Of a stretch of DNA of 64,000 nucleotides, positions 9,230 to 50,456 are shown piece after piece. How positions within the stretch are numbered: position 1 is the first letter of the stretch; each line of letters starts with the position of its first letter. The translations under genes were made by a program, and so were the position numbers. The notes below the pieces were generated by a model. It did no database searches and had not been told where the DNA came from. It saw only the letters and a program-made list of their open reading frames with translations. Source of the stretch: Bacteroidales bacterium (GTDB lineage: Bacteria; Bacteroidota; Bacteroidia; Bacteroidales; WCHB1-69); the NCBI GenBank assembly GCA_017535665.1, contig JAFXTS010000011.1, positions 12,399 to 76,398 on the forward strand. The letters are read 5' to 3'.

Positions 9230-9316
9230 GGAAAGTTGCCGGAGTGGTCGAACGGGGCAGACTCGAAATCTGTTGAACCCTTCGGGGTTCCGGGGGTTCG
9301 AATCCCTCACTTTCCG
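9230..9316 (+). tRNA. tRNA-Ser (anticodon CGA), class II with long variable arm, no encoded CCA
   Basis: Acceptor stem GGAAAGT/ACTTTCC. Anticodon stem-loop GCAGA-CTCGAAA-TCTGT, variable arm GAACCCTTCGGGGTTC and T-arm GGGGGTTCGAATCCCTC. Confidence 0.9.
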
Positions 9317-9365: not shown

Positions 9366-9604
9366 CCGTCGACCGCAAGCGGTCGTAAGGCTGACGGAAA
9401 ACAATTAAGCGGCCTTGCGGAGCAAGGGCCTTTGGTTTGCCAGGACGCCCGCGGCAGCGAAAGGGATATCCAATCCCGAACGTCCCGTCGACCGCAAGCG
9501 GTCGTAAGGCTGACGGGAAACAATTAAGCGGCCATTGCGGAGCAAGGGCCTTTGGTTTGCCAGGACGCCCGCGGCAGCGGAAGGAATATCCAATCCCGAA
9601 CGTC
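9366..9604. repeat. tandem direct repeat, 2 units of 119/120 nt, GC-rich and hairpin-rich (REP-like or ncRNA-like)
   Basis: Unit 1 is 9366-9484 and unit 2 is 9485-9604. They differ at only 4 positions, including a 1-nt indel. Internal stems are CCGTC/GACGG, GACCGC/GCGGTC and GGCCTTGC/GCAAGGGCC. Confidence 0.9.
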
Positions 9605-23181: not shown

Positions 23182-23187
23182 GTTTCA

Positions 23188-23215
23188 TTTTTCAATTTTC
23201 AATTCTCAATTCTCC
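23188..23215. repeat. heptamer tandem array (TTTTCAA/TTCTCAA)
   Basis: tttttcaattttcaattctcaattctcc overlaps the stop codon of the nucleoside permease gene. Confidence 0.75.
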
Positions 23216-28030: not shown

Positions 28031-28138
28031 CCACTTTGCGGACTTATCGTCGAGTGCTGCCTTTCCGAACTCAAACGGCAGGGAAGAATTGCACATACCG
28101 GCAGCAAGAAGAGCGGCGGGTACAGCAGGTTGGTATAG
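28031..28138 (+). pseudogene. relic of the 3' end of a LytTR/wHTH regulator paralog
   Basis: Reading after the stop at 28028-30 gives PLCGLIVECCLSELKRQGRIAHTGSKKSGGYSRLV*. This aligns with the last 28 residues of 45124..46185 (VERCLSELKKQGLIEHTGSKRSGGYSRV*). There is no start codon or upstream domains. Confidence 0.75.
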
Positions 28139-28195: not shown

Positions 28196-31100
28196 TTATT
28201 GCTTCACGAACCGCTTGATGGCTGTTTTGTTTCTGCAACGTATTTTCACAAAGTACATCCCTTGGGCAAAGTTGGCGACGGGAATTTGAATGTGTCTGCC
28301 GGAGGTTTGCATAGAGCGTAAGAGTCTGCCATTCACATCATATATTTCAGCTTCCGTCATGTCAGAAGATTCCTCTTGGAGTCGGATGTTGATGATGTCG
28401 TTGGTGGGATTCGGATAGAGAATGATGTCCGGCTCGTCGTTTATGTTCGCAACCCCTGTGTGAACAAGTGAGGTGTCAACCACAAGATTGTCAAAAAGAA
28501 AGTGGTGTTCCCCTTCACTTTCTGTTGTAAATTTGAATGCTATGTAATGCCCATTCCCTGTATAGGAGCTGAGAAATACGGTATCTTCCACCCAGATTTC
28601 ATCATACGAATCCCACTCGTTCAAATGGAGAGTTCGAATGGGGACAAAGGTGCTTTCGTTTTCGGGATCCTCCATTACCCCGACAGAGAAGAACGACGAT
28701 AGCGGACCTGACTGTTCGTACCAATACCTTATGATTAAACTGTTTATCGGGATGTCAGTGCTAAAAGGTGGGAGAATAGCCATAGAGTACTGGGCACCTT
28801 CCGCCCCTAATGCAAAGTAATTGGGCGGACTTGGCAGTTGATTAAGAATATAGCTTGAGTTTCCTGTAAAGATCATCGGGTACACCTCGAAACCATTGGA
28901 ATACGGGAAACGGGTCCAGCACCATGGGTAGAGCTCTGATCCGTACGTGTCAAAATACTCGGTATAAGGCAGAGTGACAATTTCAGCGCAACCTGTATGT
29001 AATGACAGAGGTGAAGTCCAGACGCTGTAGTCGTTGTTCCCACAAACGGTGCGCACATAAATACTGTACATAGTATTGCCGTTCAGATTGGTGAAAGTGT
29101 ATGACGTGTCCTGGATCACGAAACTTTCGGCATCCGTCCAGCTGCCACCCGCTTCCATGATGGCCACTTCCCATGTGTGGTCATCAGGAGTGCAGGGGGT
29201 GAAATGTATGCCGATTTCATGTGCGCCTATTGTATCCGTGGTAACACTCAGCGGCCTTCCACAAGAGACCCCGACAATGGCGATGTCATCCACGGCGCTG
29301 GGGGGATTGTCGTTGTACCAAGTGTTTCTTCCCCACAAAAAATAGAGTCTTTGCAGTCCTTGGTGATGCTGATCGATGGTATAAGTGTGTCGATTCCAAT
29401 TGAGATCGCGGGTGATAGTGCCTAACAGTTCTGCTCCTTCTGGGGTGTCTTCCCAGTTGGGGGTGGCCGGTGGCCCGATGAACACTTTGAAGGTGTTATC
29501 GGTACCATTGTAGAGTTGTCCTCCGCATTGATGGTAAAGCGAGAGTTCATATTCGTTGAAAGAGGGATCGAAATAGATGTCGCGATAAGTCCAGTACCAG
29601 GTAATCCGCTCATCTTCAGGAATATAGTTGTATTGGTCGGAACCAACATAGAGACTGTGGTTGCTGGATTGATACACAGCGGTTCCAATCTGCCAGTGGG
29701 GCGTGCCCGTAGTAGTGGAGGTCAGCCATTCCGCATTTTCATCAGCATCTTCAAAATCGCAGGAATAAGGAATCCGTCCAAGCATGCTGTAGGTTCGGAA
29801 CGACTGCTCAACCGACCAGATGCTTTCGTCATTCGCCGAACAGTGAGTCTTGACCTTCCAAATATAGTTCGTCGATGGCTGTAAGCCCGAAAGGTGGTAA
29901 CTGTTTGTGTTGACCGTTATCTCCGTAAAGAGACTGTCCTCCTCGGCTTTATAGGCAAGGGTGTAGGTCACGGACGGATTAGCGGGCAACCAAGTGAGTT
30001 CGGCAGAGTGGTCCAAAACACTACTGGCTGACAACTCAACAGGTGCAGGACAGGTAGAGCCTATGATGACAATATTGTCAATGGCCGCTGGCGGATTTGT
30101 CCCCCACGAGCCATCATTTGCCCATAGGAAATACAATCGTTGCATTCCCGAATAACCTGCTGGATTCATCAATTGAATGGTAGTCCACTCACCCGTCTCA
30201 TTGAGCTTGTCACTTAATGCAATGGCTCCTTCTGGAATATCATATCCAGTAGGAATGGTGGGAGGACCAACAAATAGTTGCAGATAGTCGTACTTTGTTG
30301 AATTGTAGGTTTCTCCTATTCCTTTGAAATCGAAGGAAATGGTATAGTTGGCGATAGTATCAGGGATGAAGATGTCACGGCAGGCCCATGTGGACGCTCC
30401 TGTTGTTAAAGTGTAGGCATTGGTGATTCCGCCATCATTGGAAATAAAAAGAGTTGTTTCACTGATGTTGGAGGTGTCACTGCCGATGAACCACTGGTTG
30501 GTGCGGTCATTTTCAAAAAACAGCCAGTTGGCAGCCTCCGTGGAATCTTCAAAATCGCAGGTGTAGGGAAGGTGTGCCACTGGATGAAGAGTATGGAACG
30601 AACTTTCACTCCACAAACTGTATTCATCATCAGAGCAATTACTACGAACTTTCCAATCATAAGATGTTTCATATTGGAAATCATTGATTACTATATAATT
30701 GTAGGATGATGAAAATTCTATGTAGTTTGAATCGGAGGATTCTTTGTAGAGGATGGTATAAGAATTTGCACCATCGACGGCATCCCAAGAGAGAACGAGG
30801 GTGGTATCCATCACATTGGCTGTCAGGTGCGATGGCTTGGCACAGCTGGCAGGTGTTACGGAGAGGTTGTCGATAGCCGCCGGGGGTTGGGTCCCGCCGC
30901 CACCATCATTGCGCCAGAGGAAATAGATTCTCTGTACCCCTGAAAAGGATGCATCGATAGAAAATTCATAATGGGTCCATGTTGAGACCATGCATAATTT
31001 TTCAACAAAAAGAGTAGCACCTTCCGGTGGGGTAATGATGGGATTGCTATTATCATAAGAAATATAGGGAACGTCGGCAGGCGGGCCGACATAAATGTTC

Positions 31101-31480
31101 AAATAATCATATACTCTGTCTCCTATTTTTTCCCCCATCCCTTTGAAATCAAATGCGACACGGCACTCCTGAAAAGTGCTGTCAATGAAAATGTCACGGT
31201 AGGCCCAACTGGTGGAGGCAAAACTGATGTCGTAACTATTGGTAGTGTTCAGGTAAAAACCCACATATAGCGAATAGTTGCCTTCGCTGTGGGTGGAAGT
31301 CCCTAACATCCATTGATTGTAAAAATCGGGTGAGACAACATTCCAGTTGTTCCGCTCTTCCTCGTCTTCAAAACCACAATAATAGGGAACGGTGGCTGGA
31401 ACGGGATCATCTTGTGCATATATTTTCCCGATACCAGTTGCCATGAATAAGAAGGCTGAAAAGAGGATGATTTTTTTCAT
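28196..31480 (-). CDS. large T9SS cargo: tandem lectin/MAM-like (choice-of-anchor-J-like) plus Fn3-like modules and a type-A C-terminal sorting domain
   Basis: Signal peptide, then three full modules of about 270 aa plus a divergent fourth. The recurrent blocks are PY.C.FED...W, W.YRDI.ID, FDFKG.GE, YDYL..(Y/F)VGPP, QR.YFLW.NDG...PPAAIDN, C..P and Y.WKV...CS. The C-terminal domain begins YPNPTNDIINIRL. Confidence 0.8.
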   Translation of the reverse strand: MKKIILFSAFLFMATGIGKIYAQDDPVPATVPYYCGFEDEEERNNWNVVSPDFYNQWMLGTSTHSEGNYSLYVGFYLNTTNSYDISFASTSWAYRDIFIDSTFQECRVAFDFKGMGEKIGDRVYDYLNIYVGPPADVPYISYDNSNPIITPPEGATLFVEKLCMVSTWTHYEFSIDASFSGVQRIYFLWRNDGGGGTQPPAAIDNLSVTPASCAKPSHLTANVMDTTLVLSWDAVDGANSYTILYKESSDSNYIEFSSSYNYIVINDFQYETSYDWKVRSNCSDDEYSLWSESSFHTLHPVAHLPYTCDFEDSTEAANWLFFENDRTNQWFIGSDTSNISETTLFISNDGGITNAYTLTTGASTWACRDIFIPDTIANYTISFDFKGIGETYNSTKYDYLQLFVGPPTIPTGYDIPEGAIALSDKLNETGEWTTIQLMNPAGYSGMQRLYFLWANDGSWGTNPPAAIDNIVIIGSTCPAPVELSASSVLDHSAELTWLPANPSVTYTLAYKAEEDSLFTEITVNTNSYHLSGLQPSTNYIWKVKTHCSANDESIWSVEQSFRTYSMLGRIPYSCDFEDADENAEWLTSTTTGTPHWQIGTAVYQSSNHSLYVGSDQYNYIPEDERITWYWTYRDIYFDPSFNEYELSLYHQCGGQLYNGTDNTFKVFIGPPATPNWEDTPEGAELLGTITRDLNWNRHTYTIDQHHQGLQRLYFLWGRNTWYNDNPPSAVDDIAIVGVSCGRPLSVTTDTIGAHEIGIHFTPCTPDDHTWEVAIMEAGGSWTDAESFVIQDTSYTFTNLNGNTMYSIYVRTVCGNNDYSVWTSPLSLHTGCAEIVTLPYTEYFDTYGSELYPWCWTRFPYSNGFEVYPMIFTGNSSYILNQLPSPPNYFALGAEGAQYSMAILPPFSTDIPINSLIIRYWYEQSGPLSSFFSVGVMEDPENESTFVPIRTLHLNEWDSYDEIWVEDTVFLSSYTGNGHYIAFKFTTESEGEHHFLFDNLVVDTSLVHTGVANINDEPDIILYPNPTNDIINIRLQEESSDMTEAEIYDVNGRLLRSMQTSGRHIQIPVANFAQGMYFVKIRCRNKTAIKRFVKQ

Positions 31481-31520
31481 TGTCTTGAATTTTTAGGGAT
31501 ACAATGTTGAAAAATTTGAG

Positions 31521-31579
31521 CAAAATTACAATTTTTCAGGCAAATTTTATCCCTTCACTGCCAAAATGTGAACCCTCAC
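31521..31579 (-). promoter_or_regulatory. promoter A: -7 box TAATTTTG plus two motif-1 direct repeats (GTGAGGGTTCAC / GTGAAGGGATA) phased at 21 bp
   Basis: Minus sense reads GTGAGGGTTCACattttggcaGTGAAGGGATAaaatttgcctgaaaaattgTAATTTTG. The repeats are at 31548-58 and 31570-79, the box is at 31521-28 and the ATG is at 31480. Confidence 0.6.
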
Positions 31580-31790
31580 AGCAAAAATGTGACAAACTGC
31601 TATAATGAAGCTGTTGCGAGGGTTTATAATAAATTGGTAATCAAATTTTTATAAAATGCAAAATCAATAGGGCTTTTGCGGGAATAAATGAATTTGTGTG
31701 AAGGGATAGATGAAAATCAGGAAGGCGCTTTCTCCACTTTTCACCTTTCAATTTTCAGTTTTCAATTCTCAGTTTTCAGTTTTCCACATC
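31541..31790. repeat. conserved intergenic module, copy A (homologous to 48935-49177 and partly to 44885-45060)
   Basis: It aligns with copy B over about 250 nt at roughly four-fifths identity by eye. The layout is a minus-facing repeat pair, the AT-rich core ttataataaattg.taatcaaatttttataaaa, a plus-facing repeat pair, then a heptamer array. Confidence 0.8.
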
Positions 31791-32341
31791 GCAAAGCACA
31801 CAAAGCCATATCGGGTTTCCATGCCATCTTGTGGAAGAAAAAAGTGGAGAAATTGCAGATTTTTCGGATTGTCGTAGTCCGCAAGGAAGAAGGGAGCGTC
31901 GGGGTCCCATTCACGGATTTTCATGCACACCAGAATATATTCCGCCACGTGGTCGGTGCGCCATTGGCAGTAAGCATGGGCTTGCTCCGGCGACACGCCC
32001 AAGACGGCGAAATCGTTGAACACTGGGTTGCGCAGGTAGTACCTCGCGAGACTGTCGGGCAGCTGCTGCCGGAGAATCTCCTCATCGGGCAGGGCGGCAC
32101 GGTATGGCTCCGACTCTTTTCCGTAGATGCGTTCCAGCCAATATAGGTACTCAAGCCAATCAAGGTTGGTGATGGGCTCGGAGTCGCAGTACAGTCCGGA
32201 GTCGCAGTACAGCCCGTTTCCAACCATGATCAATTTCTGTGGCAGGGCTTTCTTCTGGTAGTTTTTCAGGGTGAGGTGCTGTCCGGCCGCTGAGGTTGCA
32301 GCCGCCACCAAAAGACAAAGGATGATGTGACGGAGTTTCAT
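31769..32341 (-). CDS. short secreted FGE/SUMF1-like domain protein
   Basis: Signal peptide. EPITNLDWLEYLYWL and NDFAVLGVSPEQAHAYCQWRT resemble the N-terminal half of FGE-sulfatase domains. It contains an in-frame GLYCDS x2 duplication. Confidence 0.5.
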   Translation of the reverse strand: MKLRHIILCLLVAAATSAAGQHLTLKNYQKKALPQKLIMVGNGLYCDSGLYCDSEPITNLDWLEYLYWLERIYGKESEPYRAALPDEEILRQQLPDSLARYYLRNPVFNDFAVLGVSPEQAHAYCQWRTDHVAEYILVCMKIREWDPDAPFFLADYDNPKNLQFLHFFLPQDGMETRYGFVCFAMWKTEN

Positions 32342-36608: not shown

Positions 36609-36667
36609 CTTCTACCTTCTACTTTTCAATTTTCAATTCTCAATTTTCAATTCTCAATTCTCAATTT
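36609..36667. repeat. heptamer tandem array (TTTTCAA/TTCTCAA, about 7 units)
   Basis: acttttcaattttcaattctcaattttcaattctcaattctcaattt lies immediately downstream of the stop at 36669. Confidence 0.85.
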
Positions 36668-36668
36668 A

Positions 36669-39119
36669 CTACTCTCCCGGCTGCCCCATTCCGCCGCCAC
36701 CTTGGCTGGCCTTGCTCTCCAACTCCATCTTTCCGAAACGGAACGTGATGCCCGCGCTGATGGTTCGGCTGATGGACTTCGAGGTGGAAAAATACTGGTA
36801 ATAAGGGTTGGTCCCTTCGTTCTTGCTGGCATTCCAGTTGAAGATGTCGTTCACGTTGAGGTGTACTGAAATCTTGCGGTTGAGGAAGTCGGCGCGCAAC
36901 CCGCAGTTGATACCGTAGCGCGGCTTCGTGACTGTAAACAGGCTGACACTCTTGGAACTGTAGTAGGCAGTGGCGTGGACTTCCAGCACCTTCCACAATT
37001 TGGCCCAGAAATTGAGGCGGAAACTGTAACCGAGGTTGTCGATCTTGGTCGGCTCGGTACCGTTGCGGAAGTTGAATTCCGATTTGTCATAGTGGATATT
37101 CCCGTAAAAACGGATGTTCATGAACGCTTTGAGACGGTAGGTGACATTCAACTCCGCCCCCGTGTTCATCGTCTTGCCGGCGTTCAGCGGCATGCTGAAG
37201 TTGACAATTCGCCCGAAAACGTCACTGTAGGCTACATCGCTCAGGTCGTAGATTTCGTTGTTGGAATGTTTGTAGTAGGCACTGATGCCCACCGAGCCAA
37301 ACTTCTCGAAAAACTTGGTCCAGCCTGCCTCAACCGAATGAGTGAAAGTCTGCTTCAGGCCGGGATTTCCAATGCTATAACTCTCTTCGTCATAACTGAT
37401 GAAGGTGGTTAGTTGTTCGGCGTAAGGATTCTGTACCCGCCGTGTGTAGCTCAACTTGAAGTTGTGCATCGACTCGGTGCGGTAACTCAGATGCAACGAT
37501 GGATACAAGCTCCAGTAGGATTTTTTCACATTGTCGGCTAAGGAGTTGAGGATGCGGTAGTCGAAACACTCGTATTCGCTGCGGAGTCCGCCCTTCAGGG
37601 TGAAATTGCCGAACTTGTGCTGGAGGGTGGCATAGGCAGTAAAACTGTAGTTGCGTTCTTCGCTGTCTTGCAATCGCAACGAATCAATCTGGTAGTCCTG
37701 GAGGGTGCCAGCCAAAAGCGTGTCCTGCCGGATGACCTCCGAAGCAAAGTTGTAGTAGCCGTCCACCCCTACCGACAACTCGCCGTTCTTATGGTACGGA
37801 TAGGTATAATCTATACTGGCATATACATTGTACATGCTGCTGGTAGCACCCGATTTCTTATTCCGGTTTAGATAGGTCTGTTTGTCGTATTCCCGAATGA
37901 AATACCGCTTGGCATTGTAATAATAGGTGTTGCCGCTGAGGTCGGCACTGATTTTATGTCCTTCCTTTTTGAATTTGTGTTCATAATAGATGCCTCCGTA
38001 TCCGCCACCGCCTCCATACTGGCTGCCCTCGGCAGATTCGTAGGAATAGACATCGGGATTGTAAAGATACTCTGAACGCAAAGTTTGGGTGCTGGTTGAC
38101 GACTTTCCCCATGACGGGTAGCCACCCGCCCAGAAACTGATGCTGTTCAGGGTGTCGAACTCATAGTCACCATTGAAGTAGAAGCCGCTGGAAACCGAAT
38201 GACGCCGTTGCAAGCTAGTTCCCCACGTCGCCGAGGAAGTGTCCATCTGTTCGTTGAAACGGAGGGCTCTTGACTGCGTACTCGTCTTTTGGAATGAATA
38301 GTAGGCGTTGATGTAGAAGTTGAGCGACAGTTTGTTGTTGCTCCACACATACGAAACCCACGGTCTCACATCGGGTTGGGAGGAACCGCTTATGCCAAAA
38401 CTGACAAAGCTGTTCTTCTTGATTTTGGAAGAGGTGACGATGTTGATGATGCCGCCGGTCCCCTTGGCGCTGTACCGTGCCGACGGGTTGGTGATGACCT
38501 CAATCCGTTCCAACGAGTTGGCGGGAAGTTGCTGGATGAAGGTTTTCAGCCCCTCTTCGTTGAGGTGCGACGGTTTGTCGTTGATCCAGATCTCCACGGA
38601 GGAGACGCCGCGAAGGGTGATGTTGCCTTCCACGTCCACCTCCACACCCGGCGCGTTCTGGAGCGCGTCGGAGGCGGTGCCCGTCTGCACCGATGGGTCT
38701 TCCGACACGTTGTAGAGCGTTTTCTCGCCGTCCACCATATAGACGGACTTGGTGGCGGTCACCGAAATTCCTTCGAGCGCGGTACTTATATTTTTCATGC
38801 TAATGGTGCCGAGATCTACGGTGGACCTCCCTGCTGGCACTGTAATGGGAAGGTCCAGCGTTTCGTAGCCCAGATACGAAGCTCTCAGCAGGTAGCTGCC
38901 GGACGGAACACTGGAAATGGAAAAGCTGCCGTCAGCCTCGGTGTAAGCTACCCCCATCTCCTGCATGGTCGAATCGGTCGTGACAATGCCAACACTGACA
39001 TAAAACAACTTGTCTTGGTTCAAACTGTCCACGAGCGTTCCCTTGACGGTGGTCTGCGCCAGCAACGCACTGGAAGTCAGTGTGATAGACATGATTAGCA
39101 ATAAATGGAATCGTGTCAT
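36669..39119 (-). CDS. TonB-dependent-receptor-like outer-membrane barrel with carboxypeptidase-regulatory-like domain (copy 2)
   Basis: Same architecture as 25477..27930 and collinear similarity throughout. Confidence 0.8.
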   Translation of the reverse strand: MTRFHLLLIMSITLTSSALLAQTTVKGTLVDSLNQDKLFYVSVGIVTTDSTMQEMGVAYTEADGSFSISSVPSGSYLLRASYLGYETLDLPITVPAGRSTVDLGTISMKNISTALEGISVTATKSVYMVDGEKTLYNVSEDPSVQTGTASDALQNAPGVEVDVEGNITLRGVSSVEIWINDKPSHLNEEGLKTFIQQLPANSLERIEVITNPSARYSAKGTGGIINIVTSSKIKKNSFVSFGISGSSQPDVRPWVSYVWSNNKLSLNFYINAYYSFQKTSTQSRALRFNEQMDTSSATWGTSLQRRHSVSSGFYFNGDYEFDTLNSISFWAGGYPSWGKSSTSTQTLRSEYLYNPDVYSYESAEGSQYGGGGGYGGIYYEHKFKKEGHKISADLSGNTYYYNAKRYFIREYDKQTYLNRNKKSGATSSMYNVYASIDYTYPYHKNGELSVGVDGYYNFASEVIRQDTLLAGTLQDYQIDSLRLQDSEERNYSFTAYATLQHKFGNFTLKGGLRSEYECFDYRILNSLADNVKKSYWSLYPSLHLSYRTESMHNFKLSYTRRVQNPYAEQLTTFISYDEESYSIGNPGLKQTFTHSVEAGWTKFFEKFGSVGISAYYKHSNNEIYDLSDVAYSDVFGRIVNFSMPLNAGKTMNTGAELNVTYRLKAFMNIRFYGNIHYDKSEFNFRNGTEPTKIDNLGYSFRLNFWAKLWKVLEVHATAYYSSKSVSLFTVTKPRYGINCGLRADFLNRKISVHLNVNDIFNWNASKNEGTNPYYQYFSTSKSISRTISAGITFRFGKMELESKASQGGGGMGQPGE

Positions 39120-39163
39120 ATTCGATTGTTTTTTAGATACAAAAAAACTATTCGAGCGATGTT

Positions 39164-39195
39164 TACCCCCTCACAGCGACAAAGTGAACCCTCAC
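39164..39195 (-). promoter_or_regulatory. motif-1 direct-repeat pair (21-bp phase) upstream of barrel copy 2, overlapping the stop codon of the sigma-fusion gene
   Basis: Minus sense reads GTGAGGGTTCACtttgtcgctGTGAGGGGGTAA. ccctcac occurs at 39068+100 (39168-74) and at 39189-95, an offset of 21 nt. The ATG is at 39119. Confidence 0.55.
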
Positions 39196-41051
39196 TTTGT
39201 CACCACATCGGCTCCACCTGTAATTTTAACATTGCACCCACAGGTTCCGTCCAAGAGGTAAACCGTTCCCGTTTTCGGGACATATACGTCGGTCTTGCCG
39301 ACACCTTTCTGCGTGATGTAAGCGGTAGATGCTGTCAAACCACTTGCTTTAATGTTACCCACCCCTTCATTCTCCACAATCAGGTTGTCTGCCCTCCCTC
39401 GCACGGAAATTGCGCCAGTATCCCTGTTTTTGATTGTCAAAATAGTAACATCCAATACTTTAAGCGAAATATTCCCCACACTCAAATTCTGTACATTCAC
39501 TTTCGATGTTTTGCCTTTCACCATCTTTTCGGTCGCCTTTATGCTGCCCGTACCTTTGTTTTTGATAGTCAAAGTGTCATAACATACATACCGCACATCA
39601 ATGCTCCCTATGTCGTTATTTCCCAAAACCAAATTCTTCTTTGCCACCAGACCATCACATTTGAAGCTGCCAATGCCATGGTTGGTGACGGTGAATGAAT
39701 CCTCATTTATTTCGCGGGCGGTCACGTTGCCCGGACCTTTCAGTGTCACTTCTTTCAGATGTGGCGTGTATATCGTGACGGAAATGGGCGAGCCGGTTTT
39801 GGGAGCCCCCTGCTTGAGAGAGACGGTAAGGTTTCTGTCCAAAACTTCAAAGGTCTTAGGGTCTATCACGTCTACAAATTCCGTGCGCACATAGTCCATC
39901 ACGTTGGAATCTGCCGCTATGTAAGCAGTGGATTCATCTCCGCGTGCTATAATGACGTCAATAGGGGAGGAAACAGTTAGCGAGGTGAAGGGGTCCAACG
40001 TCCGTTTTTGGGAAACCCTCCCGCTGTTGTCCAAAATTTGGAAATTGTTGAAATCGATTGCATCAAGGCTGGATTGGGAAGGTATGTTTTCTTCGCTGGG
40101 GCAGGGTGTTTCGGACAACGGGGGTGTTTTTTTTGCGGGATGGTCGGGGATATTTCCCGTCTCTACTGTGGCATGCGCCGTCTCTGCCATGGTTGTATCA
40201 ACCGCCGTTTCCACCGTATCCACCACCACGCCAATCGAATCATGCATTTCATTTGTTGACAACGGGTTATGTTGTTCTGTCGGTGCTGCGGGTTGCAGGA
40301 CGATGAGGGTGCCCGAAACCGCAACGGCCGCAATTCCCGCGGTGGCGGTGGCGATGGCGGGGACTTTCGCGGCGGAAATGGCCATCCACGCGCTCGGTTT
40401 CGGGACGGCGGCCCAGTTGACCCCTGCCAACGGGGAGGTTTGGGCGGGTGCAAAAGCCAAGTGCTGGAGCTTGGCACGGCAAAGACGGTCGATGGCGTGC
40501 GCCTTGTGAGGGATAAAGGGCAAAAGTATCATAAGAAGGGATTTTTTTCGTTTGTGGGTGTTGGTTAGCATTGCCTGGAGTTGTGTCCGCGCTTCCGACA
40601 GATAGCGTTTGGAACTCCGCTCTCCAATTTTCAGTGTTTCTGCAATTTGTGAATGTTTCTGTTTTTCAAATACATATAGGTTGAAAACGGCCCGTTGCTT
40701 GTCGGGAAGGGCACAGATGGCTTCCAAAATTTCCTGTTCGGTGAAGTCTGCCGCCGGCAATGGCTCTTCCTCTGTTTCCAGACCGTCGTCACAAATATTC
40801 ATGTCGTCAACCGACTGGAAATGAGGTTGTTTGCGCAGATAATCCAGTGTATTGTTGAGGTTGATGCGCATAAGCCACGCCTCGAAACTGCCGAAGTTGT
40901 GGTACTGCTCCGACTTTTCGATGGCCTTGAGGAAGGCCTCGTGCGCGAGGTCCTCCGCCACGGAGCGGTTGCCCACATAGCGGTAGCACACACCGATCAT
41001 CTTGCCGATGTTCTTCTGGTAGGTTCGTGTCCAAAACTGCTGTGCCTGCAT
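39192..41051 (-). CDS. single-polypeptide ECF sigma factor / transmembrane linker / extracytoplasmic GIN (DUF2807-like) beta-repeat domain
   Basis: Sigma region 2 (DLAHEAFLKAIEKSEQYH..GSFEAWLMRINLNNTLDYLRK) and region 4 (LPDKQRAVFNLYVFEKQKHSQIAETLKIGERSSKRYLSEARTQL). A TM follows (VPAIATATAGIAAVAVSGTLIVL), then a Pro/Thr linker. The C-terminal 300 aa or so have G.G.I / V.G.G repeat strands typical of DUF2807. Confidence 0.7.
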   Translation of the reverse strand: MQAQQFWTRTYQKNIGKMIGVCYRYVGNRSVAEDLAHEAFLKAIEKSEQYHNFGSFEAWLMRINLNNTLDYLRKQPHFQSVDDMNICDDGLETEEEPLPAADFTEQEILEAICALPDKQRAVFNLYVFEKQKHSQIAETLKIGERSSKRYLSEARTQLQAMLTNTHKRKKSLLMILLPFIPHKAHAIDRLCRAKLQHLAFAPAQTSPLAGVNWAAVPKPSAWMAISAAKVPAIATATAGIAAVAVSGTLIVLQPAAPTEQHNPLSTNEMHDSIGVVVDTVETAVDTTMAETAHATVETGNIPDHPAKKTPPLSETPCPSEENIPSQSSLDAIDFNNFQILDNSGRVSQKRTLDPFTSLTVSSPIDVIIARGDESTAYIAADSNVMDYVRTEFVDVIDPKTFEVLDRNLTVSLKQGAPKTGSPISVTIYTPHLKEVTLKGPGNVTAREINEDSFTVTNHGIGSFKCDGLVAKKNLVLGNNDIGSIDVRYVCYDTLTIKNKGTGSIKATEKMVKGKTSKVNVQNLSVGNISLKVLDVTILTIKNRDTGAISVRGRADNLIVENEGVGNIKASGLTASTAYITQKGVGKTDVYVPKTGTVYLLDGTCGCNVKITGGADVVTK

Positions 41052-43684: not shown

Positions 43685-44311
43685 CTACTGGCGGTTTCCC
43701 TCCGTGCGGTACGTGAACTTGTCGAAACGCTCAAAGCCGTAGGCTTGCAGCTGCTCCACGCTCCACGCCCGGTCGTCGTCGGTGTTGTAGTCGGGGATGA
43801 GCGGCACGCGCACCACCACCTGCTGGGTGGGGAAGTGGCCCGCAAGGTGTTCCAGATTCCGCAGGAGCCGTGTGATTGGCTGGCCGGTGTACTGCTGGTA
43901 AATCTCGGGATGCAGGTCTTTGATGTCCACGATGAAGGCATTCACATGGGGCAGCACCGCCTGCAGGTTCTCCTCCGGCACGTTGAGGGAGGTTTCAAGG
44001 GTGAGCTGCCAGTCGGCGCCGCACAACTCGCGGAAACGGATGAGGTAGTCGGGGCGCAGCAGCGGCTCGCCACCGCCGAAACAAACCCCGCCACCGGTGG
44101 CCAGAAAGTACAGCTGGTCGATGCGTACCTCCTCGTAAAGCTGCTCCGGCGTCAGACAGCGCAACCGCTCCGCCGAACCCAGACAGGAGGGGTTCAGACA
44201 GTAGCGGCAGTGCAGCGGACAGCCGTGGAAGGCCGCCAAAGTGGTCACCCCGTCGCCATCAATGCCGATGCGATGCCGTATAATACCGATGAATGGAGCC
44301 GCTTGCAACAT
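43685..44311 (-). CDS. small radical-SAM enzyme of the glycyl-radical-activase-like type (copy 1)
   Basis: GVTTLAAFHGCPLHCRYCLNP carries a CxxxCxxC cluster motif. GGGVCFGGGEPLL is a SAM-binding-like block. At 208 aa it has no SPASM extension. Confidence 0.8.
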   Translation of the reverse strand: MLQAAPFIGIIRHRIGIDGDGVTTLAAFHGCPLHCRYCLNPSCLGSAERLRCLTPEQLYEEVRIDQLYFLATGGGVCFGGGEPLLRPDYLIRFRELCGADWQLTLETSLNVPEENLQAVLPHVNAFIVDIKDLHPEIYQQYTGQPITRLLRNLEHLAGHFPTQQVVVRVPLIPDYNTDDDRAWSVEQLQAYGFERFDKFTYRTEGNRQ

Positions 44312-44314
44312 GTT

Positions 44315-44794
44315 CTATAACGAATCTTGGGGTGGGTCGGTTATCGGGATGGTATCTGTGAGAATTTCATCAGATGGATCTTCCACAAAGCCTTCACACA
44401 TTATTACTTCCCCGGGAACAATCATCTCCCACGTTGCTTCCTCTTCTTTGTTGGTTTGGGCACTGTCAATGGGAGGAGCGGGTATGGTATCCGCCACCTT
44501 TTCCGTTTGGGGTTGTGCAACGACCTCCGGGATTTTGTCTTGCGCTTTCGGCTGGCAGGCATTCAGGGCTATGCTGCCCAACGCGATGCCGGCAATGGTC
44601 ACCGCCTTCCCCATCAGACTCCGCTTCTGCAGCTCCCGTTCCAGGTACTGCACTTTCGATTCGCAGTACGGACAGGTGCCGTGGCAGTCGCCCTCATGGG
44701 TGCATTCGCGTTCCTCCAGCGGAATGTTGTTTTGCGCGGCAATATCCCGACGGATCTCTTTCAAAATTTTGCAGGTTGCTTTCCCGTGTTTCAT
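44315..44794 (-). CDS. Cys-rich N-terminal domain / TM (lipobox-like) / acidic Pro-rich tail protein, translationally coupled to the radical-SAM gene
   Basis: MKHGKATCKILKEIRRDIAAQNNIPLEERECTHEGDCHGTCPYCESKVQYLE has 5 Cys, including CX5CX3CX2C. It is followed by MGKAVTIAGIALGSIALNAC. The stop is 3 nt before the rSAM ATG. Alternative starts exist at 44851 and 44890. Confidence 0.6.
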   Translation of the reverse strand: MKHGKATCKILKEIRRDIAAQNNIPLEERECTHEGDCHGTCPYCESKVQYLERELQKRSLMGKAVTIAGIALGSIALNACQPKAQDKIPEVVAQPQTEKVADTIPAPPIDSAQTNKEEEATWEMIVPGEVIMCEGFVEDPSDEILTDTIPITDPPQDSL

Positions 44795-44866
44795 GGCTGA
44801 AAAAATATTGGTTGCAAAGGTACGATTATTTTCTTGATGAATATACTTCATTGCGATTTTCAGCAA

Positions 44867-44926
44867 CGAAATTACAATCGTTTCAAGCAAAATTTATCCC
44901 TTCACACCCAAAATGTGAACCCTCAC
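44867..44926 (-). promoter_or_regulatory. promoter C: -7-like box TAATTTCG plus motif-1 direct-repeat pair (21-bp phase) for the Cys-rich/rSAM operon
   Basis: Minus sense reads GTGAGGGTTCACattttgggtGTGAAGGGATAaattttgcttgaaacgattgTAATTTCG. It is collinear with promoters A and B. Confidence 0.6.
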
Positions 44927-45022
44927 CACGAAAATGTGACGGATGGTTCAAATGAAAATGCTGTATTGGTTTATAATATTTTGATAATCAAATTTTTATA
45001 AAAAATATAATTGAGAAGGCTA

Positions 45023-45099
45023 ATGAAGGAATAAATGAAGATGAGTGAAGGGATAAACCCATTTTGGGAAGATTGTTTGGAAAGAATTGAGTATTTTTG
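45023..45099 (+). promoter_or_regulatory. plus-facing motif-1-like repeat pair (ATGAAGGAAT / GTGAAGGGAT, 22-nt phase) and -7 box TATTTTTG for the LytTR regulator gene
   Basis: The repeats are at 45023-32 and 45045-54, the box is at 45092-99 and the ATG is at 45124. Confidence 0.5.
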
Positions 45100-45123
45100 C
45101 TGCCGTATATACATCCTGCCTTT

Positions 45124-46185
45124 ATGAAACATTCGAAGAAAATTGCCATCGTTTTGCTCAATGTCCTGTTCAGTGCCGTAGTGCTTTGGTTTTTTGCCCG
45201 CAACCTTATTTTGCACCCATTCTCGGGCGGCTTTGTCAAGGAAGCCATTTCGGGCATTCTGTTGTTAGGCTCATTGTATTTCAATTACTTTGTGCTTTAT
45301 CCCAAGCTTTATCCCAAATATCCGCAAGTGTATTGGGCGGTTGTGGTGCTCAGTGCTATCGTGGTGGGCGTTGTGGAGACGGCTCTTGCCTACCGTTTTA
45401 TTGTATCGCGCCATGCCAATGCTATTAAACTGGTGGGATATTTCGAGTTTTTCGCCACCCATCAGTTTGAGGTCATTGGACGGAATCTCGCTTTGAATTT
45501 CTTCCCGTTTTTGTTCAGGGATCGTAAACATTACCAACAGTCGTTGGAGGACGAGACCAAGATCGTGTACGAGCGGGTCCGCATGCTGGATGTCGCCGAC
45601 AAGGACAGCAACATCCAGCTGTTGACCATGGATGACATTTTCTACTGTGAGCAGCAACGCAATTTCACCACGATCTACACCGTGCAAAATGAAAAATACA
45701 CGAGGTTGGGTTCCATGAAGCATCTGGAGCAGCTGTTTGGCGAGGAGGATTTCATCCGCATCACAACCACCTTGCTGGTGCCTTTCCAGCATATCCAGTC
45801 GTGCAAAGATAACAGGGTGATGATGAAGCAGATGCCGTGGGAGGAGGTGCCCACCACCTTCCCATTGGAGGCCCGCACGCAGGCGGAAGTGGCTGAAAGA
45901 ATTTCCGAAATCCTTTCGCAGAAGGAGGTTGTTTTAGACGAAAATAAAATCCCGGAGACTCCGACTTCCACCACTGCCAGGCGTAAACCGGCATCTGCCG
46001 CTGAGGGAAAGGTCAGGGAGGTGCTATCTTACATCGAAGCCCATCCGAACTGTAATACGGCGGACATCATGGCCGGAACGGACTTTTCGTTGAGCACCGT
46101 GGAGCGCTGCCTCTCCGAGCTCAAAAAGCAGGGACTCATCGAGCACACCGGCAGCAAGAGAAGCGGCGGGTACAGCAGGGTGTAA
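45124..46185 (+). CDS. membrane-anchored LytTR-domain regulator with an extra C-terminal winged-helix domain
   Basis: Three to four N-terminal TM helices. A LytTR-like block reads IQLLTMDDIFYCEQQRNFTTIYTVQNEKYTRLGSMKHLEQLFGEEDFIRI. The C-terminal MarR/wHTH-like block reads VLSYIEAHPNCNTADIMAGTDFSLSTVERCLSELKKQGLIEH. There is no receiver domain. Confidence 0.65.
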   Translation: MKHSKKIAIVLLNVLFSAVVLWFFARNLILHPFSGGFVKEAISGILLLGSLYFNYFVLYPKLYPKYPQVYWAVVVLSAIVVGVVETALAYRFIVSRHANAIKLVGYFEFFATHQFEVIGRNLALNFFPFLFRDRKHYQQSLEDETKIVYERVRMLDVADKDSNIQLLTMDDIFYCEQQRNFTTIYTVQNEKYTRLGSMKHLEQLFGEEDFIRITTTLLVPFQHIQSCKDNRVMMKQMPWEEVPTTFPLEARTQAEVAERISEILSQKEVVLDENKIPETPTSTTARRKPASAAEGKVREVLSYIEAHPNCNTADIMAGTDFSLSTVERCLSELKKQGLIEHTGSKRSGGYSRV

Positions 46186-47398: not shown

Positions 47399-48823
47399 TT
47401 ATTCTTTTACGAATTTGGCTTCCATGGTGCCGTTCTCCGAATCAATCTTCAGAAGATAGAGTCCGGCTGCAAAATGGCTTATGTCTAAAGTGAAGTCGCT
47501 GTCGTTCACTCTCTTTTTATGAATAAGTTGTCCGTTGGCATTGTAAACGGAGATTGTGTTGATGCGGCTGTCGCCCTCGATGCGAATTTGGTCAGAGGCC
47601 GGATTCGGGTACATTCTCACAGTGGCGATGAGTTCGGTGCCGACACCGCTGCCGTTGGGACCGAAAACGGTGTAATAGCCCCAAGTGAAGCATCCCGGAT
47701 CATTGGCTTCTTGCACCATCACAGAATAGGTGCCGATAGGCAGGTTGGAAATGGTGGCGGTCTCAGCGCCGGTGTTCCATGTGTAGAGGTAGGGCGGATT
47801 GCCGGAGGTGACGGTGGCCGTGGCGCTTCCCGTGCCAGAATAGATGGAGTAGGAGTTGGAGTTCGTGCCGGTAACGGTGACGGCGATGTTGCAGCCGGCA
47901 GGATTAACGGTGAAGTTGCCGACCTTCTGGCAGGCATTGGCATCTGTAACCGTTACATAGTAGCTGGTGGGTATCAGTCCAGTGATGGTTTGGGTGGTTT
48001 CAAGGTTGCTCCAGAGGTATTGGTAGGGTGCTGTGCCGCCGTTGGGGGTGGCGGTAGCGGTGCCGTCCATGGCACCAACGGAGGTTTCGTGCGTGCCGCT
48101 CACGGTCACATTGAAGCCTTCACAACTGGGCATGTTGAAGACGATGCCGTCGATGTAGAACTCGCTGCCGGCCACGGGAGCGGGAAGTCCCAGCTGCGAG
48201 GGGGTAGGCATCCCCGGAGCGATGGCGGAGTAGTCGGGGATGGAGCCGACGCTGGAGCAGATGAAAATGCTCATCTTGTCGGGCTGCTGGGTGGTGGAAT
48301 ATACAAAGGGAATGTTCACATGCGTCCACTCCTCCACGGTGCTGTTCACCTCGAAGTAGCACTCGCCCACGAGGTCGTCTTCGTCGGTAGCGGCATTGTA
48401 CTTGGTGAGCTCCACTTGGAAGCAGCACGCATCATCGCCCATCGGTTTCGCTTTGTACAGGAAATCCACTGATACGGGGCGTTTGTTATAGGCCACACCG
48501 CCATCTCCGACGGAACCCAGCTGGATGAAGCCGCCGACAGGATTGGGGAAGGGTAGGGGCAGAAACAGCAGCCTGAAGTTCTCGCATTCCGGACAGCTTC
48601 CTGTCACCAATTTCAAAGAGGCGGAGCCCTCTCCGGGAGAGGCGGTCTCCTTGAATACAGTCTGTGCACCGCCGCCGTCCATCGATAGGTCGTTGGAAGA
48701 GGTCCATCCTACGGGCTCAATGCCATTCCAGTTCTCAAAATTCAAGTTGGTGGGATCGTTCTGGGCGTGTGATACCATTGCAATAAATGCAAGGAACGCC
48801 ATGAATAGGCTAAATTTTTTCAT
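47399..48823 (-). CDS. T9SS cargo with N-terminal lectin-like domain, two SprB-type repeats and a type-A C-terminal sorting domain
   Basis: Signal peptide. SprB-like repeats (GAMDGTATATPNGGTAPYQYLWSNLETTQTITGLIPTSYYVTVTDANAC, and a second with PPYLYTWNTG). The C-terminal domain reads MYPNPASDQIRIEG...AAGLYLLKIDSENGTMEAKFVKE. Confidence 0.8.
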   Translation of the reverse strand: MKKFSLFMAFLAFIAMVSHAQNDPTNLNFENWNGIEPVGWTSSNDLSMDGGGAQTVFKETASPGEGSASLKLVTGSCPECENFRLLFLPLPFPNPVGGFIQLGSVGDGGVAYNKRPVSVDFLYKAKPMGDDACCFQVELTKYNAATDEDDLVGECYFEVNSTVEEWTHVNIPFVYSTTQQPDKMSIFICSSVGSIPDYSAIAPGMPTPSQLGLPAPVAGSEFYIDGIVFNMPSCEGFNVTVSGTHETSVGAMDGTATATPNGGTAPYQYLWSNLETTQTITGLIPTSYYVTVTDANACQKVGNFTVNPAGCNIAVTVTGTNSNSYSIYSGTGSATATVTSGNPPYLYTWNTGAETATISNLPIGTYSVMVQEANDPGCFTWGYYTVFGPNGSGVGTELIATVRMYPNPASDQIRIEGDSRINTISVYNANGQLIHKKRVNDSDFTLDISHFAAGLYLLKIDSENGTMEAKFVKE

Positions 48824-48914
48824 TACTCTTTTTTTGATTGATATTAATGTGATGTTTGCTCAATTCACGTTACAAACGTTACAAATACAGCAGCTGGCTG
48901 ACAAATTTCAGCGG

Positions 48915-48973
48915 CAAAATTACCATTTGCAGAGCAATATTTAATCCCTCATAGCAGGAATGTGAACCCTCAC
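48915..48973 (-). promoter_or_regulatory. promoter B: -7 box TAATTTTG plus motif-1 direct-repeat pair (21-bp phase)
   Basis: Minus sense reads GTGAGGGTTCACattcctgctATGAGGGATTAaatattgctctgcaaatggTAATTTTG. The repeats are at 48942-52 and 48964-73, and the box is at 48915-22. Confidence 0.6.
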
Positions 48974-49177
48974 AGCAAAAATGTGACCACCTGCTTCAAT
49001 GAAGCAGTTATGTGGATTTGTAATAAATTGTGAATCAAATTTTTATAAAAACAAAATGGATAGGGCTTGTGAGGGAATAAATGAAATTATGTGAAGGGAT
49101 AGATGTAAATCAGGAAGGTGCTTTCTTCCGTTTTCACCTCTCACCTTTCAGTTTTCCATTTTCCATTTTCCATTTCC
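48935..49177. repeat. conserved intergenic module, copy B
   Basis: Collinear with 31541-31790. It includes the plus-facing pair GTGAGGGAAT (49069) and GTGAAGGGAT (49091), and a TTTTCCA heptamer array at 49131-49177. Confidence 0.8.
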
Positions 49178-49793: not shown

Positions 49794-50456
49794 CTACTTT
49801 TTAATTTTCTGATTATGAATAATGTACGAGTCTTTTTGGGCGATGTCAGTTCGGTATTCGAAACGGTCGAAGTTTTGGAATCCGTATGCCATTAATTGCT
49901 CCACGCTCCATGCCCTATCGTCGTCGGTGTTGTAGTTGGGGATAAGCGGCACCCGTATCATCACCTGCTGGGTAGGGAAGTTTTGGGACAGATATTTCAG
50001 ATTCTCCAACAGCAACTCAATAGGTCTTTCAGTATAGTTTTGATAAATATTGGGATGTAAATCCTTGATGTCCACGATGAAATAGTCGGCAACGGGCAGC
50101 ACGGATTTCAACTGTTCTTGAGGAACGTAGAGGGAAGTTTCTAAGGTAAGTTGCCAGTCGGGACCGCACAACTCGCGGAAGCGGACGATAAAATCGGACC
50201 GTAGCAGGGGCTCCCCACCGCCGAAGCACACCCCGCCATGGGTGGCCAAAAAGTAGAGCTGGTCGATGCGCACCTCCTCATAAAGCTGCTCAGGAGTGAG
50301 CGTGCGACAGACTTCCACCAGACCGTGACAGCTGGGGTTGAGGCAGTACTTGCACTGCAGGGGACAACCGTGGAAAGCCGCCAGCGTAGTCACCCCCTCG
50401 CCGTCGATGCCGATGCGGTGCCGCATTATGCCGATGAAGGGAGCCGGTTTTACCAT
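49794..50456 (-). CDS. small radical-SAM enzyme (copy 2, about 75 percent identical by eye to 43685..44311)
   Basis: GVTTLAAFHGCPLQCKYCLNP and GGVCFGGGEPLL. It is collinear with copy 1. Confidence 0.8.
   Translation of the reverse strand: MVKPAPFIGIMRHRIGIDGEGVTTLAAFHGCPLQCKYCLNPSCHGLVEVCRTLTPEQLYEEVRIDQLYFLATHGGVCFGGGEPLLRSDFIVRFRELCGPDWQLTLETSLYVPQEQLKSVLPVADYFIVDIKDLHPNIYQNYTERPIELLLENLKYLSQNFPTQQVMIRVPLIPNYNTDDDRAWSVEQLMAYGFQNFDRFEYRTDIAQKDSYIIHNQKIKK

Follow-up and report, generated by a model that had tools for sequence, protein, structure and literature searches.

The 64,000-nt stretch of Bacteroidales bacterium DNA analysed here (contig JAFXTS010000011.1; hereafter the window) holds, between a gene for a Cys-rich membrane protein and a divergently transcribed gene for a LytTR-domain regulator, a region of phased repeats and promoter boxes. 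Judged by its sequence, this region is a conserved two-way promoter cassette beside a membrane-anchored LytTR-type regulator of uncultured rumen Bacteroidales, and it is most likely the operator of that adjacent regulator. Our preferred reading, to which we give a probability of about 0.6, is that a membrane-tethered one-component LytTR regulator would autoregulate from this region and control a small envelope regulon. An earlier note on the same DNA had seen here a symmetric module of repeat pairs around an AT-rich core, with a −7-type box on each side, in the manner of the agr P2/P3 promoters.

Repeat units and promoter boxes

On both sides of the region (copy B of the module; coordinates in Table 1) the repeat units recur at a period of 21-22 nt, which by sequence is the pattern of a LytTR-type site. 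A LytTR site is made up of two or three direct repeats of 8-11 bp, separated by spacers of 10-13 bp, and is placed over the −35 region or directly upstream of it; autoregulation is frequent among the regulators that use such sites (PMC6193735, PMC11347149, PMC4227749). The repeat pairs, AT core and boxes listed in the earlier note are all present where it placed them, far beyond chance expectation. A 20-nt unit pattern has five matches in the window against 0.06 expected, and phased TGARGG pairs occur six times against 0.095 expected. A weight matrix trained solely on 23 sites from other genomes, none from the window, recovers exactly four window sites, at 60.6, 59.3, 57.7 and 24.9 bits (best of 20 shuffles, 7.6 bits).

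The two −7-type boxes named by the earlier note fared unequally. The box on the regulator side, TATTTTTG, stands, and that on the target side, TAATTTCG, is one base off TAnnTTTG; an additional consensus box, TACCTTTG, had been missed. Position 44868 is a G/A polymorphism between contigs of this locus, with TAATTTCG in the window, L001 and L002 and the consensus TAATTTTG in L004. The TACCTTTG box lies in a 21-nt stretch, GAAAATAATCGTACCTTTGCA, of which L017 has two copies, one at either side of an inserted gene. The insertion in that contig (MAG_166; 3190-3222 and 4745-4792) is a 503-aa AlbA_2/HATPase_c_4 gene between the module and the Cys-rich gene.

The proximal unit on the regulator side (45045-45057) is a perfect 13-nt inverted copy of the one on the target side (44893-44905), with 139 nt between the arms. 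With a plus-strand RNA fold z-score of −3.3 besides, this brings to mind a promoter that inverts between the two repeat arms, or else a structured RNA element. Either is exceedingly improbable: both predicted −7 boxes have the repeats on their upstream side, and there is no conserved small open reading frame (ORF). Inversion was discarded because, relative to its flanks, the asymmetric core points the same way in each of the contigs examined (more than 20), among which no flipped-orientation junctions were seen; the scanned neighbouring genes include no recombinase. The RNA element was rejected with no Rfam match at the gathering threshold or at an E of 1, and the fold z-scores reflect the inverted repeat only. 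Three smaller candidates also fell away. A small ORF over the plus-facing pair (MKMSEGI.., MNLCEGI..) meets an immediate stop (ATGTAG) in paralog modules. The AT core could not be upheld as a palindromic site for a dimeric winged helix, as its 16-nt-arm palindrome is significant in copy B only and palindromy is not kept in 13 other modules. An extracytoplasmic function (ECF)-sigma promoter was set aside given that the sites bear a housekeeping −7 box.

A nearly fixed geometry beside LytTR paralogs

A scan for the motif GTGAGGGTTCAC-N9-RTGARGG-NN-TAAA against 185,579 species genomes, made without reference to any protein, returned 19 loci, all in seven rumen 'Bacteroidales bacterium' metagenome-assembled genomes (MAGs), with at most six loci per genome. 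The full module is present at seven of the 20 motif matches, and at each of these seven the ATG of a LytTR paralog, 52-99% identical to the window protein, lies 197-201 nt away on the other strand. In the reverse direction, metagenome contigs searched with the aligned paralogs yielded 18 loci, and the module is present in every one that has enough upstream sequence.

For the geometry we used 20 non-redundant modules, the window's own and 19 from other rumen Bacteroidales contigs. Throughout this set the divergent-side gene is a paralog of the window regulator, and the order of the elements and the distances between them are nearly constant. Counted from the regulator ATG, the regulator's own −7 box lies at −31 to −37 (20 of 20 modules), its own repeat heads at about −79 and −101, a TAATCA core at about −139, the target-facing heads at about −200 and −222 and the target −7 box at about −250. 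The conserved AAAATGTGACGG block, which reads TGAAGG in most paralog modules, has its head at about −190. The earlier note's tie between a divergent control region and the LytTR gene is thereby borne out, as the 19 further modules keep the order and near-identical distances to a paralog.

The promoters fall into two spacing classes. At target-type promoters a perfect TAnnTTTG begins 29-30 nt after the proximal head at 24 sites (two in the window), and the proximal unit therefore sits at the Bacteroidetes −33 position; no TTTG was found at the usual 19-21-nt spacing in the sequences of these loci. All 13 own-type promoters that have a −7 box, the window's included, place the proximal head 45-48 nt ahead of it, and a conserved GGGATAAT-like block is found ~15 nt before the box. 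The degenerate third-unit region of copy B corresponds to the conserved TTTTGGGG ... GGGATAAT blocks immediately upstream of the −7 boxes of paralog modules. Because the spacing classes differ and this block marks the own side, the two arms are related but not symmetric. Copy B itself has 30 nt from proximal head to −7 box on the target side versus 46 nt on the LytTR side, so the symmetry drawn in the earlier note does not hold.

In several paralog modules, 8-10 G in a row stand immediately to the left of the AT core; this poly-G tract is absent from copy B. Its length varies between near-identical contigs (8 versus 9 in L030 and L031; 10 versus 8 in L012 and L013), a difference that could be slipped-strand spacing variation or assembly error. 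In contigs L028, L030 and L031, stretches of up to 8 kb hold two or three LytTR paralogs, all on one strand; between them stand genes driven by the module, among them one for a 66-aa Cys-rich lipoprotein and one for a SprB/type IX secretion system (T9SS) cargo protein.

Repeat sequences drift with the regulator

The earlier note's claim that both arms carry a related repeat was right: they share a common unit, and this unit changes with the regulator in distant relatives. At 29-56% identity to the window protein the repeat sequence is altered, and the phased or divergent layout is retained. L038 (56%) has TGAGAYGGATWAAA on both sides. On the target side of L040/L041 (48%) the heads read CCCTCA and keep the phase, and the own side has TGAGGGATTA units at a distance of 32 nt. 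L049 (37%) repeats a TGRTGGATTAT-type unit three times at intervals of 21-22 nt, L053 (32%) has a perfect 17-nt inverted pair containing TGAGAAGATAAAA, and in L056 (29%) two copies of ATGAGAATGCCTT are spaced at 20 nt, with a third one upstream of them. The repeat sequence thus tracks the adjacent regulator as a cognate pair predicts, which supports binding of each regulator to its own phased repeats. Among the distant members (29-39% identity) the regulator is divergent from a minus-strand gene at every locus with upstream sequence, and at five or more of these loci the product of the minus-strand gene belongs to a conserved lipoprotein family of ~165 aa.

The regulator protein

LytTR domain PF04397 is found at residues 164-235 of the regulator with 36.5 bits (cut-off 22.6), and the C-terminal winged helix matches Pfam HTH_24/MarR_2 (HTH_24 at 1.4e-6). 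The AlphaFold2 model (pLDDT 78) has long helices at residues 2-27, 37-62, 67-96 and 106-151, followed by a beta domain (154-247), a disordered linker (269-291) and the winged helix (294-352). By Foldseek the beta domain matches the LytTR domains of 3d6w, AgrA (4xqj/3bs1) and ComE, with target-normalised TM scores of 0.74-0.78 and E of ~1e-5, and the tail matches MarR-type proteins. Pfam gives no Response_reg match, hence no receiver domain, and no match to the MHYT sensor domain (PF03707); the membrane domain has no Pfam match. The family is small, with 302 representatives at E ≤1e-3 among 1.84 billion, none of them named. The identical protein occurs on rumen-type metagenome contigs.

Comparison with known LytTR systems

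The likeness to the agr P2-P3 region of Staphylococcus aureus, regulated by AgrA, holds for the promoters and not for the circuit. As in agr, divergent promoters are each preceded by a direct-repeat pair, one of them drives the regulator gene, and other sequence lies between the pairs, which in agr contains SarA sites (PMC4227749). AgrA, however, belongs to a circuit with a kinase and an autoinducing peptide and is a phosphorylated response regulator, whereas the window regulator is receiver-less and membrane-anchored and has an extra winged helix, and the two sides of its module are unequally spaced, at 30 and 46 nt. Neither a histidine kinase gene nor a peptide-processing gene is among the scanned neighbours of the regulator, so the two-component part of the agr comparison falls.

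In LytTR regulatory systems (LRS) such as HdrRM and BrsRM of Streptococcus mutans, a pair of repeats directly precedes the promoter of the regulator gene and gives positive feedback (PMC6193735). The window module also has such an own-promoter pair, which may likewise give positive feedback. We count as a further likeness that paralogous LRS have overlapping regulons (PMC6193735). In contrast to LRS, in which a soluble regulator is co-transcribed with a membrane inhibitor, the window has no separate inhibitor gene next to the regulator, whether HdrM-like or of the NfeD/DUF2154 kind, the helices being fused to the regulator; its target is divergent rather than in an operon with the regulator, and the regulator has a winged helix. 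A further parallel is with 'LRS-like' operons predicted in Bacteroides, in which, as in the window regulator, transmembrane segments precede the LytTR domain (PMC6193735). These predicted operons have 11-bp repeats, an 11-bp spacer, 11 bp and then TGTA-19-TATCTTTG (PMC6193735), which puts repeats of 22-bp period ~45 nt from TATCTTTG, the own-type spacing of the window modules. Unlike them, with their NfeD-like/DUF2154 membrane protein gene upstream of the regulator, the window regulator has no such domain among its neighbours in a domain scan. CoxC, a membrane-bound single-component MHYT-LytTR regulator (PMC11347149), likewise has a membrane sensor fused directly to the LytTR domain, but it is a repressor with three 8-bp repeats, an MHYT domain and no second DNA-binding domain (PMC11347149).

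Proposed mechanism and its alternatives

We infer that regulator protomers bind the TGARGG-headed units, phased at 21-22 nt with the consensus TGTGARGGGATAAA, and that the units form two arrays pointing away from each other. The target pair, GTGAGGGTTCAC-N9-GTGAAGGGATAAA, ends 17 nt before a Bacteroidetes −7 box and would replace the absent −33 element, so that bound regulator could recruit RNA polymerase at target promoters in a class-II-like manner. The same pair-plus-box unit would drive other envelope genes, namely T9SS cargo, TonB-dependent receptor, TonB-like and lipoprotein genes. On the own side the pair lies 17 nt further upstream, an arrangement typical of LytTR positive autoregulation, and autoregulation is probable. 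The degenerate third unit abutting the own −7 box could give negative feedback. The membrane domain would sense the signal.

Several points weigh against this proposal. No LytTR gene adjoins at least 12 of the motif-bearing promoters, and many paralogs of 52-68% identity share a nearly identical unit. The regulator has two candidate DNA-binding domains that could read the repeats. The window's own target-side −7 box is imperfect, and the consensus box TACCTTTG is nearer to the gene. Finally, the CoxC site that overlaps the −33/−35 position is a repressor site (PMC11347149).

The last of these bears on whether the regulator represses its targets, the pair covering the −33 position and blocking RNA polymerase until a membrane signal releases the regulator. 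The placement of the proximal unit 29-30 nt from the −7 box, the strong consensus matches of the target −7 boxes and the precedent of CoxC, a membrane-bound LytTR protein that represses from repeats covering the −35 box (PMC11347149), all speak for it. Nevertheless, the lack of TTTG at 19-21-nt spacing in the targets is more typical of activator-dependent promoters, and the regulator's own promoter has the spacing of a LytTR activator. We regard repression as unlikely, if worth keeping in view; because the targets are without a −33 element, activation is the more likely mode.

The first two points would be explained if another clade-wide factor reads the phased repeats and the LytTR genes are mere members of its regulon. 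This seems to us quite improbable, given that no homolog examined departs from the fixed spacing between module and LytTR ATG, that the repeat sequence shifts with the LytTR lineage down to 29% identity, and that direct-repeat phasing at 21-22 nt is a hallmark of LytTR sites.

If the adjacent regulator does bind, the repeat pair, 34-41 nt long and constantly spaced from a Bacteroidetes −7 box, is a concrete candidate operator, and a candidate regulator can be named for an uncultured rumen lineage without known transcription factor sites. LytTR biology would be extended to membrane-fused, receiver-less proteins with a second DNA-binding domain, and the sites found suggest that outer-membrane and secreted proteins make up a small regulon. 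A natural experiment on LytTR action at −33/−7 promoters would be at hand in the two spacing classes.

Other copies of the module in the window

The module is not private to this locus: the window has three full copies and four target-type sites. The ~230-nt copies (A, B and C) have the same orientation, and copy B aligns at 75% identity with A and C. The gene-facing pair occurs at four sites, each facing a minus-strand gene, and the four targets are a 1094-aa fibronectin type III (fn3)/T9SS cargo gene, a TonB-dependent receptor gene, the Cys-rich/radical-SAM operon and a SprB/T9SS cargo gene. The isolated pair before the receptor gene overlaps the stop codon of an ECF-sigma/DUF2807 gene and has no perfect −7 box at the usual offset. 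That gene (39192-41051, minus strand) encodes a 619-aa fusion of ECF-sigma regions 2 and 4 with a DUF2807 adhesin-like part.

Table 1. Module copies, their elements and the associated genes, in window coordinates
Feature	Position	Strand	Remarks
Divergent intergenic region	between 44315..44794 (−) and 45124..46185 (+)		between Cys-rich gene and regulator gene; module copy B
Second −7 box TACCTTTG (P2)	44815..44822	−	consensus; 20 nt upstream of Cys-rich ATG
Target-promoter −7 box TAATTTCG (P1)	44867..44874	−	module-linked; one mismatch to TAnnTTTG; begins 30 nt past proximal head
Target-side proximal unit GTGAAGGGATAAA	44893..44905	−	fills position of absent −33 element
Target-side distal unit GTGAGGGTTCAC	44915..44926	−	21 nt in phase with proximal unit
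Conserved block AAAATGTGACGG	44928..44939	+	plus-facing head, back to back with distal target unit; from alignment
AT-rich core	44970..45003		holds conserved TAATCAAATTTTTATAAAA (44985-45003)
LytTR-side distal unit ATGAAGGAATAAATGAA	45023..45039	+	TGAAGG head at 45024
LytTR-side proximal unit GTGAAGGGATAAA	45045..45057	+	TGAAGG head at 45046; 22 nt from distal head
Degenerate third-unit region (TGGGAAG ... TGGAAAGAATTGAG)	45065..45091	+	from paralog-module alignment
Own-promoter −7 box TATTTTTG of regulator gene	45092..45099	+	
Regulator gene, 353 aa	45124..46185	+	four N-terminal helices, LytTR domain, C-terminal winged helix
Cys-rich single-pass membrane protein gene, 159 aa	44315..44794	−	first gene of minus-strand operon
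Radical-SAM gene	43685..44311	−	second operon gene; resembles glycyl-radical-enzyme activases
Module copy A	~31510-31730 (elements 31521..31710)		upstream of 1094-aa fn3/T9SS cargo gene 28196..31480 (−)
Copy A elements	31521-28; 31544-84; 31638-56; up to 31710		−7 box TAATTTTG; target pair; core; right pair
Module copy C	~48890-49125 (elements 48915..49103)		upstream of SprB/T9SS cargo gene 47399..48823 (−)
Copy C elements	48915-22; 48938-78; 49032-50; 49069-49103		−7 box; target pair; core; right pair
Isolated target-type pair	39160..39200	−	upstream of TonB-dependent receptor gene 36669..39119; 24.9 bits

A plus-strand gene follows on the right of copy B alone. Copies A and C border there on the 3′ ends of further minus-strand genes and have no LytTR gene on that side. 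In contig L032 the left half of copy A joins an intact LytTR paralog, which is followed by an AAA-SprB block and module C. Window copy A corresponds to the left half of one L032 module and the right half of another, the LytTR-AAA-SprB block between them being missing, and it looks like a recombinant between two modules. Directly after the module in L018, the homolog of copy C, there is a 26-codon LytTR fragment (L018 3389-3466). The window also has a LytTR paralog remnant at 28049-28132 (plus strand), consisting of the last 28 codons and 79% identical. These remnants mark deletions beside module-bearing genes, and copies A and C have lost their LytTR gene.

Such traces might suggest that the module is mainly a dispersed recombinogenic or mobile repeat whose regulatory look is incidental. 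Three copies in 64 kb, assemblies that break inside the module, the joined halves in copy A and insertions or deletions between modules in L017 and L018 all fit this. The breaks are seen in six short Logan contigs from different sequencing runs, all of which begin at 44897, as expected since the module is a genomic repeat. Against a mobile repeat stand the absence of a transposase or recombinase nearby and of target-site duplications, the exact distances to the −7 boxes and the ATG, conservation that is centred on the phased units and extends beyond the inverted repeat, and the many promoters at which a target-type pair stands alone. We consider it very improbable as an explanation of the module: the evidence of recombination is real and, as read from these contigs, overlies the exact promoter geometry rather than replacing it.

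Operator function and recombination could be parts of one arrangement. In this more speculative picture, which we hold to be doubtful, the module is a portable cassette on whose diverging phased arrays membrane-tethered regulators with two DNA-binding domains assemble. The strictly conserved AT core, with a poly-G tract of variable length in some paralogs, would set the geometry or serve the winged helix, and recombination between copies would reassort surface-protein genes under a shared sensor network. If so, it would diversify the cell envelope in rumen Bacteroidales.

Neighbouring genes and genomic context

The neighbours of the locus encode the Cys-rich membrane protein, a radical-SAM enzyme, an AAA/DUF4143 ATPase and a T9SS cargo protein; the gene downstream of the regulator is convergent. 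The ORF and start of the Cys-rich gene were picked by homology (MKHGKATC... against MKGKQICSYL... in L011/L014). Its product has no Pfam or NCBIfam match. Its homologs are mostly ~275 aa and carry PF03544 TonB_C, so the window protein corresponds to the N-terminal domain usually fused to TonB_C, with the TonB part absent. We had considered it as a membrane partner of the regulator and dropped the idea, as most paralogs are paired with other genes.

The radical-SAM protein of the operon matches TIGR02494 at 7e-36, below the family cut-off, and PF04055 at 2e-17. The window holds a second radical-SAM paralog (49794-50456), and both resemble glycyl-radical activases; no glycyl-radical enzyme is among the scanned neighbouring genes. 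In L021 the second radical-SAM gene retains its own Cys-rich partner, which is absent from the window.

Two further kinds of repeat were noted in the window. Tandem heptamer arrays (TTTTCAA, TTTTCAG, TTTTCCA) lie between genes at 2113-2151, 23183-23211, 31738-31784, 36623-36667 and 49152-49175; at least three of them are at the 3′ ends of minus-strand genes, and one holds the stop codon of the gene at 31769..32341. A 120-nt GC-rich unit is present as two tandem copies, 96% identical, at 9366-9604, directly downstream of a tRNA gene at 9230-9316.

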